A stretch of DNA of 64,000 nt, from assembly GCF_029227855.1 (NCBI RefSeq), contig NZ_CP074356.1. One strand, 5' to 3'. Each line of letters starts with the position of its first letter. Position 1 is the stretch's first letter. This DNA comes from Escherichia coli (lineage in GTDB: Bacteria; Pseudomonadota; Gammaproteobacteria; Enterobacterales; Enterobacteriaceae). The position numbers are program-made. Positions 59,701-62,700 of this stretch are shown here, in pieces.

Positions 59701-62700
59701 GGGGGCATCCATCCCCCGCAGAAGGTCTGGTGGATCTGCCGCTGATTTGCGACTGGCCAAACCGCCCGAAACAGAAAGTCTGTTACGAAACGGGCAAGCC
59801 TGCGCAGACGGAATATGAAGTGGTGGAGTATGCGGCGGATAACACGGCAAGAGTGGTGTTAAAACCGATTACCGGGCGTTCGCATCAATTGCGTGTGCAT
59901 ATGCTGGCGCTGGGTCATCCGATTCTCGGCGATCGTTTTTATGCATCACCGGAAGCGAGAGCGATGGCACCGCGTTTGTTGCTACATGCAGAGATGTTGA
60001 CGATTACCCATCCGGCGTATGGCAATAGTATGACGTTTAAAGCGCCAGCGGATTTTTAACCTTTCCTGTACGTTTATACCCTCATCCTAAGGGCTGCCTC
60101 TTGTACATAAATCCCCGAGTCCGGGGATTTTTTGTTTCTGCCAAACTGCTTTCAGTTGTTGCGTGTGGCTACGCTTTCCATTCGGTAATTCCCTTCCTGC
60201 TCCACAGCGAATTTTTGAACTTTTTCTTCACCCGTTGATCGTCTCTATTATTTCATTTTATCGGGTCTGTTATGGTCCTTTCTGATTGTTATTCATGGGC
60301 TAATTAGCAGTCTGGTTGGCGATGCCCATCTCGGTGATCCGCGTCGTGCACGACGCCTTGCATCACCAGCCTCTTCTCTAGCTCATCATGCAGGTCTTTC
60401 TAATTGTGAAATCATCCCACGCTACTGCTAAGGTTGAAGGGGCGTTCCAGCCCCTTCAACCTTAGCTTATTCTGGATCATTCAATAATTGCGTTGGCAAT
60501 AATTTTTCAGCAGTACTTTGTTTAGTAGCAACTCCTTCAGTAACAATTTTTTTTGGGGTGATTTTATTAATAATAATTACCTCAGCATATAGGCGGGTAG
60601 CACCGTCCACGGTAGCACCGTCCACGGTAGCACCGTCCAGGGTAGCACCGTCCAGGTTAGCATTCCACCCAGGTTTCATGTAAAGGTTTTCATTGCTATC
60701 TATTATTGTTTTTTTACCAAAGTAACAATCCCTCATGTCAACGCCGGGAAGGTAAGCCTCTCCAAGATCAACGCCCAAGTTACCTGGGCCTTTATGCAGC
60801 TGCAACGTCTGAATACATATCTCCTTATTTTCAATGAAAAAAGTGACACTTAACTCGATATCACCGTAGATCTCGGCGACCCAGCGCATCTTGCCCTTTG
60901 CGACCATCTCATCCGGATTTTTTGCGCATGTTTTGAGTTCATTGAATAATTCCAGACTATGGATAAACTTTTCTTTCTCATTCTCGTCGACAGCCCCAGT
61001 AAAGTATTTTGAGGCGTTGATGTTGCCAGCCTTTTTATTCACGAAATTGAACAGAAGTTTATAAGCCTCAGTCTGTTTATCTGACCAGAACAGATGACGT
61101 AACGTCTCCCACAAGCGTTGAAAGATATTCATCTTCACGTCAATCTTGTCCCCGCTCACCATCTTATAAATATCGTTATTGCTCATATTTAAAAGTGTAG
61201 CCGGCATGCCTGGAACTGATACTTTCATGGTAATAGCCTCGCATTGAGTTAAAAACTCATGATGCGCGCTCTGAATAAATATACTTTCAAAAATCGCTCA
61301 TTCAGATATGTGTTTTTAATTTTTAAGACGTAAAAATATAATTCCGCTCGTCGTAAAGTTCTCAACCTTAAGCAGGGTCAACGCGATAAAACCAACAGAA
61401 ACCCTCCCGTAAACCGTGTATTGAGCCTGTCCACCACTCTGGGTAAACGCCTTTTCTCAAAGAAGTGACCGCCAGGGCGGCCACCTTTAATCGTGGGCAG
61501 TTACTCAGCATCATTTACAGGGTCATTTAAACCCTTTCTGCTGTTTTATCAGCTCATAGGCCTGCTGAATTTCCTGCGCTTTTTGCTTCGCCATCTCCAT
61601 CATCTCTGGCGGCAAACCTTTCGCCACCAGCTTATCGGGATGGTGTTCACTCATCAGCTTACGGTAGGCACGTTTGATTGTGGTCGCATCATCCGTCGGC
61701 TTCACGCCCAAAACATTACAGGCATCTTCCAGCGTCGGGCCACGCTGCGCTTGCTGCCAGTTACCACCGCCAGATTGCTGCTGATAACCGCCGCCAAACT
61801 GTGCACCGCCCTGCATCATGCGCAAAAACTGGTCAAACTGGGCGCGGGAGATCCCTAATTCTTCAGCAATAACATACAGCACCGCCCGTTCATTCGGGTG
61901 CAGTGAACCATCAGCAAACGCCGCCTGAATCTGGATCTCCAGAAACATACGAATTAAGTCAAAACGACCAAAGCAAACACTGCGAAACTGGCGCATCTTT
62001 TCGCGCAGCAGGTAATTGTCTGATTTTCCCACCCGGAACGCGTTTTGCGCCGCAGTACGGGAAGCGCCATGCAGGTTCATTCGGTCCATCAACTGGCTGG
62101 CGATATGAATATCAGCCTCCGTGACGCGACCTTTGGATTTGGTTAAATGCCCCATCACTTCAAAAGTGGTGGCAAAAAACAGCGCCTGACGCTCACGCTG
62201 GTTGGCGAACCACGCCATTTTACGGCTACGGGCTTTATCAAACATATGGCCAATTAACAGGCCTAACACTACGCCCCAAAAGCCGCCGCCCATCAGTAAG
62301 GCCACGGCCACGCCAATGATTTTTCCCCAATACTGCATATATTCCCCAAATCGACACACGGATATCAGGGCTATCTCCCACAATATAAAGGTGCTTTTAC
62401 CGTTTTCCGGCTGCGGTCAATTGTGGGACATCGCCTATAATTTGCATTATCATACCTGTCATTCAATGCCGTGCCTAACACCACTGACGCTATTCGGACA
62501 GGATTAACACTAGCGTAGAGATGACGAGTACGTTAGTCTCTGACCGTTTGTCACGCGCAACGTTACCGATGATGGAACAATAAAATCAACGTATGAAAAA
62601 ACGTATCCCCACTCTCCTGGCCACCATGATTGCCACCGCCCTTTATAGTCAACAGGGACTGGCAGCCGACCTCGCCTCACAGTGCATGTTGGGCGTGCCA

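Follow-up and report, generated by a model that had tools for sequence, protein, structure and literature searches.

A probable left-end remnant of an ISEc13-like insertion sequence between rluA and espY1 of Escherichia coli, bounded by hairpins at two convergent transcript ends

The subject of our analysis was the gap between rluA and espY1 in a 64-kb window of Escherichia coli DNA, the window being the whole stretch of 64,000 nucleotides to which all coordinates refer (Table 1). The minus-strand open reading frame (ORF) that closes the gap is annotated as espY1 in RefSeq genomes carrying a 100% identical sequence, and in K-12 it is split into yabP and yabQ. A sequence-only reading had singled out about 300 bp (60135-60432) of the gap as unassigned, free of recognizable repeats and bounded by two strong hairpins, and had proposed either the remnant of a degraded gene or an unannotated small RNA. 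Both hairpins were recovered by a terminator scan and by folding. The accompanying statement that no ORF exceeds about 15 codons holds for ATG starts and fails for TTG or GTG starts, which open frames of 45 aa (60101-60238), 40 aa (60163-60285), 21 aa, and 25 aa. The 45- and 40-aa frames show no sign of being genes.

Table 1. Features at and around the rluA-espY1 gap, in window coordinates
Feature	Position	Strand	Description
rapA	56482-59388	+	
rluA	59400-60059	+	
Spacer from rluA stop codon to IS end	60060-60093		34 bp; left edge of the 1.46-kb rluA-djlA block
Left terminal inverted repeat, decayed	60094-60112	+	19 bp; CTGCCTCTTGTACATAAAT versus CTGTCTCTTATACACAAGT in ISEc13, 15/19; resembles the Tn5 outside end
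Hairpin 1	60109-60130	+	AAATCCCCG-AGTC-CGGGGATTT; 9-bp stem, 4-nt loop
T-tract after hairpin 1	60131-60140	+	Together with the TTT of the stem reads TTTTTTGTTTCT
IS leader remnant (transposase promoter and 5'-UTR region)	60141-60271	+	Alignment to ISEc13
Transposase pseudogene, first ~59 codons (Tnp_DNA_bind domain)	60272-60449	+	PGAP calls, Pfam, and alignments; ATG at 60272
Hairpin 2	60427-60466	.	Perfect 17-bp palindrome, 6-nt loop
espY1	60467-61228	-	253-aa ORF; T3SS effector EspY1, pentapeptide-repeat protein
djlA	about 61523-62338	-	

Alignment with a chromosomal copy of ISEc13 (strain SCU-101) and with the intact plasmid copy of E. fergusonii pEF03 revealed that the sequence from 60094 to about 60449, roughly 356 bp, corresponds base for base to the insertion sequence (IS) from its terminus to about codon 59. 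The nucleotide identity to the intact plasmid-borne ISEc13 of E. fergusonii and Salmonella was 87.9% over 355 nt, and the homology broke off between 60448 and 60452. Elements of this group are delimited by two inverted repeats of about 19 bp beginning CTG(T/A)CTCTT, of which the left one alone is present here. Neither a second IS end, sought by a pattern search, nor any other fragment of the ISEc13 family was found within the 64-kb window, and the right end of the IS has been deleted at this locus. Because the left end at 60094-60112 is the sole one, the sequence is to be regarded as a remnant and not as an element. We accordingly read 60135-60432, with a probability of about 0.93, as the interior of a solo left-end remnant of an IS4-family, IS50/Tn5-like element of the ISEc13 group, with hairpins marking the ends of both neighboring transcripts. 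The remnant is incapable of transposition and encodes nothing. An active IS or a MITE was ruled out by the presence of one end only, and a REP or BIME origin was likewise rejected, the REP consensus (GCCTGATGCGACGC...CGTCTTATCAGGCCTAC) being absent from 60060-61522 and REPs occupying the rluA-djlA spacer only in strains devoid of the block described below.

The coding portion of the remnant carries three lesions relative to ISEc13, namely a TAG at 60305-60307 where ISEc13 has GAG and two insertions, one of +4 near 60318-60321 and one of +1 near 60402-60403. Conceptual repair of the frame gave a 58-aa translation that matched Pfam PF14706 (Tnp_DNA_bind) with 40.5 bits against a cut-off of 24 (E=2.3e-10), a match that was seen only after this repair. 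The truncation lies upstream of the DDE_Tnp_1 catalytic domain, which is absent, so that the locus lacks an intact DDE transposase. K-12-like, O157, and other lineages have the TAG, +4, and +1 lesions in common, and a single old event is thereby indicated. PGAP annotates, in all the island-bearing genomes that we inspected, a frameshifted pseudogene missing its C-terminus at the equivalent of 60272-60450, under the name "transposase DNA-binding-containing protein" or "IS4/Tn5 family transposase DNA-binding protein". The stretch is thus already annotated and cannot be called unassigned. The curated MG1655 record (NC_000913.3) shows no feature at the locus, which fits the impression that the sequence-only reading had formed. 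Our search of the literature on yabQ/rluA, ISEc13, EspY1, and ECs0073/Z0065 found no description of the stretch.

The proposal of a degraded gene was therefore correct in kind, since what the stretch contains is the beginning of a dead transposase gene of the IS4/Tn5 family, and incomplete in that IS terminal sequence is included as well. The lack of a long ORF and the pseudogene-like lesions would equally suit the remnant of an ordinary, non-mobile chromosomal gene. Against such an origin, the sole homology is to the N-termini of IS4/Tn5-family transposases and to the non-coding terminus of ISEc13 with its terminal repeat, and paralogous copies reside in unrelated islands and on plasmids. With the ISEc13 alignments and the Pfam match effectively refuting it, a host-gene origin is scarcely credible.

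ISEc13 itself is a true relative of IS50/Tn5. Its transposase matched the Tn5 transposase structures (1MUH, 1MUS, and 4DM0) over the full length with E=1.7e-81 and consists of Tnp_DNA_bind and DDE_Tnp_1 domains. The ends of the element read CTGTCTCTTATACACAAGT and ...AGATCTGATCAAGAGACAG, and both copies examined are flanked by 9-bp duplications (CTGTAAGAC in L002 and GGATAAG(T/C)A in L015). We take these ends to agree with those of IS50 at 18 of 19 positions for the outside end and at 19 of 19 for the inside end. To our knowledge, IS50 has no GC-rich stem-loop directly abutting its 19-bp end. The remnant retains the region homologous to the N-terminal DNA-binding domain of the Tn5 transposase, but unlike IS50/Tn5 it is a fragment with no DDE domain. 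The intact reference copy of ISEc13 (IS4 family; PGAP "IS4-like element ISEc13 family transposase") lies on pEF03 (NZ_CP040808.1, locus L015, 1601-3164). With this copy the remnant shares the terminal repeat pattern, the sub-terminal hairpin, the leader, the start codon, and the first ~59 codons. It differs from the reference in the loss of about 1.2 kb comprising the catalytic domain and the right end, in 4 of the 19 terminal-repeat positions, in the TAG, +4, and +1 lesions, and in possessing a longer T-tract and the 17-bp palindrome.

The claim that the stretch contains no repeat did not survive comparison with other genomes, since it belongs to a multi-copy IS family. Of the 5,426 complete E. 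coli genomes searched, 2,776 gave megablast matches to it, a count that includes paralogous copies at 80-90% identity. Two such paralogous stubs, one in the leuX-adjacent island of ST131 (L004) and one in the T6SS/IS-rich region of strain UTME-6 (L005), resemble the remnant in being truncated 5' fragments that PGAP calls pseudogenes and that have kept the end hairpin. They differ from it in insertion site, in breakpoint, in their identity of about 83-85%, and in having neither the T-tract improvement nor a palindrome at the break. Outside E. coli, a scan of 100,044 species-representative genomes with a 24-mer taken from the remnant found a single ISEc13-like contig, in Escherichia sp. MOD1-EC7003, although an exact 24-mer is a fragile probe from which even K-12 differs by one base, so that the scan is weak evidence of absence.

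At the level of the locus, the remnant forms part of a larger unit. Positions 60060-61522 (1,463 bp) comprise the 34-bp spacer, the IS stub, espY1, and the region upstream of espY1, and have a GC content of 38-47% against 52-61% for the flanking genes. When 59700-60480 was used as a megablast query, about 3,300 genomes, among them BL21(DE3) and B2 strains, matched positions 1-360 of the query only, so that similarity to the window ends precisely at the rluA stop codon. In these block-less strains no more than 116-149 bp, composed of REP sequences, separates rluA from djlA, as read directly at the empty sites of BL21(DE3) and one O25:H4 strain, and the 34-bp spacer at 60060-60093 has no homology to this REP-containing sequence. 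Among the 5,426 complete genomes, 2,079 carried rluA together with the remnant, orthologous remnant matches numbered about 2,082, and the 3' part of espY1 was found in 2,082 genomes. The coincidence of stub carriers with espY1 carriers indicates that the two travel as one unit, in which espY1 is the cargo gene, always found together with the remnant. The IS stub and espY1 are thus fixed as a presence/absence block, which in ~38% of complete E. coli genomes stands in place of the REP-containing spacer between rluA and djlA. When espY1 paralogues or homologues bearing another 3' flank were sought by blastn, only the orthologous locus was returned, so that the ancestral 3' flank was not recovered, and a protein search for distant EspY1 homologues returned only EspY1 variants of E. 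coli and Shigella.

What our analysis adds to the existing annotation is that both transcript-end hairpins flanking the remnant are made from its sequence. Hairpin 1 (-14.8 kcal/mol, z = -2.7) is the sub-terminal stem-loop of the IS; it begins in the last few bases of the 19-bp terminal repeat, is kept in every ISEc13 copy examined, and has a longer stem in those copies (-20 kcal/mol). The tail that follows it reads TTTTTTGTTTC in the window, TTTGTTATTTC in the pEF03 copy, and TTTGTGATGTC in other ISEc13 copies, and only the window version, not the ISEc13 tails, passed the terminator scan. Published K-12 RNA 3' ends were taken from the LB RNAtag-seq sheet of Supplementary Data 3 of the TRS study (PMC10687069) and transferred by a gapless alignment of the reversed K-12 segment to 60060-60480, in which the window coordinate equals 119746 minus the K-12 coordinate. 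These data were obtained in K-12 and not in the present strain; the K-12 sequence is identical at both hairpins. In that sheet the primary 3' terminus of rluA is 59610(-), with a signal of 0.99, a rank of 159, and adjusted p values of 5e-32, 0, and 2e-57 in three libraries (PMC10687069), which places it at 60136, inside the T-tract. In the supplements of Adams et al. (eLife), the only signal at the locus is an antisense one inside rluA.

A GC-rich stem-loop, a U-tract, and an RNA 3' end within that tract are therefore found together at hairpin 1. In its 9-bp GC-rich stem, 4-nt loop, run of six U, and RNA 3' end in the U-tract, it resembles canonical E. coli Rho-independent terminators and differs from them in that its sequence was donated by the end of a mobile element and did not evolve in place. 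We infer that hairpin 1 and the T-tract constitute the intrinsic terminator of rluA, derived from the IS's own end, and that they cause termination rather than mark a processed end. The T-run may have been improved after insertion, possibly adaptively, but the tail of the nearest intact ISEc13 (TTTGTTATTTC) is already T-rich and the window tail is only 1-2 substitutions away from it.

Hairpin 2 is considerably more stable (-35.1 kcal/mol, z = -7.8 on the plus strand; -36.6 kcal/mol on the minus strand, that of espY1) and is chimeric. The left arm and the loop derive from the coding sequence of the transposase (...AKVEGAF), reading GCTCAGGTTGAAGGTGC GTACCG in ISEc13 and GCTAAGGTTGAAGGGGC GTTCCA in the window. 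The right arm, at 60450-60466, repeats the left arm perfectly in inverted orientation and joins the IS breakpoint to the espY1 stop codon, and the 17-bp palindrome is absent from ISEc13. Beyond the 17-nt arms, inverted similarity fell to chance level (3 of 25 in-register positions), and an off-register local alignment was dismissed. The right arm presumably arose by a fold-back or template-switch copy during truncation of the IS. In the same K-12 data sheet, the primary 3' terminus of yabQ is 59315(+) (PMC10687069), which corresponds to 60431 on the minus strand, at the base of hairpin 2. With the K-12 ends at 60136 and 60431, the interval 60135-60432 corresponds almost to the nucleotide to the space that separates the two mapped, convergent RNA ends. 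On the espY1 strand, hairpin 2 presents a very stable stem with no U-tract, the longest U-run being 2, in which it departs from canonical terminators. The RNA end at this position may reflect an exonuclease stop, trimming, or Rho, and not an intrinsic terminator. In strain 14EC033, a 45-bp deletion between TCA microhomologies has removed hairpin 2 and left the espY1 ORF intact, from which it follows that the hairpin is dispensable at least there. That both bounding hairpins consist of IS sequence had escaped the sequence-only reading.

The suggested small RNA gene between the hairpins might, for instance, use the former promoter of the transposase and terminate at hairpin 2. On the plus strand this hairpin is followed by TTATTCT and passes a terminator-like scan, and 1,910 genomes share the left 131 nt of the stretch at 99% identity or more, both as a small RNA would have it. 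A covariance-model scan of 59900-60700 against Rfam, however, returned only chance-level matches to miRNA and Xanthomonas sRNA models, located on the hairpins and far below the gathering score (best 19 bits versus 70). The same promoter scan found no plus-strand sigma-70-like promoter in either the window or intact ISEc13, and the interior folded no better than shuffled sequences (z = -1.6 and -1.8) and gathers substitutions and indels (about 7% variable sites in 8 haplotypes). The termini of rluA and yabQ are the only primary 3' ends at the locus in the part of the K-12 sheet consulted (PMC10687069), and RNA at the locus was not found in the literature. The small-RNA proposal is accordingly very improbable, and we retain the reading of a dead IS end between two convergent transcripts.

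Under this reading of an IS remnant, the locus keeps the left end of a Tn5-like IS of the ISEc13 group, with a stop codon and two frameshifts inactivating the transposase frame. The element is truncated before the catalytic domain, and the 17-bp palindrome formed at the point of truncation. The IS end hairpin and T-tract would now end rluA transcription, with the RNA 3' end at 60136, and the palindrome marks, at 60431, the 3' terminus of the mRNA of the convergent espY1/yabQ. The ~300 bp in between is a decaying spacer separating two convergent transcript ends, with a present role that is probably passive. Sequence homology, the lesions of the gene, the distribution among genomes, the hairpins, and their coincidence with the K-12 RNA 3' ends are drawn from our own results or from published data.

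A stronger role, in which the remnant is kept by selection as a two-sided terminator or insulator that blocks rluA read-through antisense into espY1 and the reverse, would make it a true exaptation rather than a case of neutral persistence. The remnant would then be a co-opted double-ended boundary, in which a G-to-T change produced the six-U run and hence the rluA terminator, a fold-back or template-switch palindrome produced the espY1 3' end, and the result was selected and is not junk. Such co-option is conceivable but doubtful. It would accord with the RNA 3' ends, which in the K-12 sheet map to both hairpins, and with the contiguous T-run, which is longer in the window copy than in any ISEc13 copy and allows the window copy alone to pass the terminator scan. 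Both stems are also intact in 7 of 8 haplotypes, the changes falling only in loops or in the loop-closing pair: the one variable stem site is the loop-closing pair of hairpin 1, and the loops of hairpin 2 show two changes, while the interior also has a 1-bp deletion. However, with 1 variable site in 52 stem nt versus about 21 in 286 interior nt (roughly P=0.1), stem conservation is a weak trend that is not significant. Moreover, hairpin 2 has been deleted in strain 14EC033, block-less strains manage with REP sequences alone, and recent common ancestry within E. coli would give high identity in any case.

The remnant is ordinary, and the significance of the finding is mainly one of annotation tidying, in that a blank 400 bp between yabQ and rluA in MG1655 is replaced by an IS4/Tn5-family pseudogene (PGAP and this analysis). 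The polymorphism between the IS stub with espY1 and the REP-only spacer might serve as a marker of lineages. In K-12, O157, and about 38% of E. coli, the terminator of the rapA-rluA housekeeping unit would be borrowed from a dead IS end, and the 3' hairpin of espY1 was likewise created at the IS breakpoint. The locus would thus illustrate, in a clean and datable form, how transcript boundaries can be supplied by the debris of mobile elements.

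The entire intergenic region between rluA and djlA proved to be a presence/absence polymorphism. The 1.46-kb block composed of the ISEc13-like IS stub and espY1 occurs in approximately 38% of complete E. coli genomes, and the other genomes, including BL21(DE3) and an O25:H4 strain, carry 116-149 bp of REP/BIME sequence between the two genes. At the block edges, homology ends exactly at both stop codons, those of rluA and djlA, the latter being TGA in the window versus TAA in BL21. The hairpin at the djlA 3' end (GGTGGCCGCCCTGGCGGTCAC) lies within block DNA, outside the core sequence, and the primary djlA 3' terminus in K-12 was mapped to this hairpin, at coordinate 58244 (PMC10687069). 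Therefore, the two core genes on either side of the block both take their transcript ends from it. An antisense signal within rluA, at K-12 coordinate 60116 (+), is additionally listed in the eLife 2021 3'-end mapping paper (PMC7815308, supplementary file 2).

Features of the rluA-djlA region and of intact ISEc13 copies (L006 and L007, loci of strains lacking the block; L012, strain 14EC033; L002, SCU-101 chromosome; L015, E. fergusonii plasmid pEF03)
Feature	Location	Strand
Polymorphic intergenic region	window 60060-61522	
Block-free spacer, REP/BIME	L006 3861-3976	
Block-free spacer, REP/BIME	L007 3861-4009	
Antisense signal in rluA	window about 59630	-
Deletion in L012	equivalent of window 60412-60455	
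espY1 tandem repeat	window 60581-60670	
djlA 3'-end hairpin	window about 61457-61508	-
ISEc13 insertion, SCU-101	L002 2920-2944 and 4485-4509	
ISEc13 left end, pEF03	L015 1601-1619	
ISEc13 right end, pEF03	L015 3146-3164	

The chromosomal ISEc13 of SCU-101, whose transposase contains an internal stop, was inserted into a GC-rich hairpin directly downstream of pgtA, and its 9-bp duplication, CTGTAAGAC, sits within the stem of this target hairpin (GCTCCCCCTGTAAGAC...CTGTAAGACAGGGGGC). The ends of the ISEc13 copy on pEF03 are almost identical to those published for IS50, the left end matching the IS50 outside end at 18/19 positions and the right end matching the IS50 inside end at all 19 (19/19). 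This copy also contains a perfect palindrome of 13 bp (GTCTCTTGATCAG/CTGATCAAGAGAC) that extends across the stop region of the transposase and the right end.

Within espY1, about 5 copies of the 15-bp unit GGTAGCACCGTCCAC are arranged in tandem and encode the GATVD pentapeptide repeats of the effector. Copy number differs among strains, EspY1 ranges from 216 to 286 aa in length, and the 3' half of the gene shows 78% to 99% identity across strains (blastn). Many database entries (P0005, P0006, P0021, and others) designate EspY1 orthologues as 'UDP pyrophosphate phosphatase', a name that finds no support here because Pentapeptide is their sole Pfam signal, and that is probably a propagated misannotation.

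In strain 14EC033, a naturally occurring deletion of 45 bp, bounded by TCA microhomologies, removes most of hairpin 2, the 17-bp palindrome at the 3' end of the espY1 mRNA, and leaves espY1 intact. This strain offers a natural test case for the importance of the hairpin 2 palindrome.
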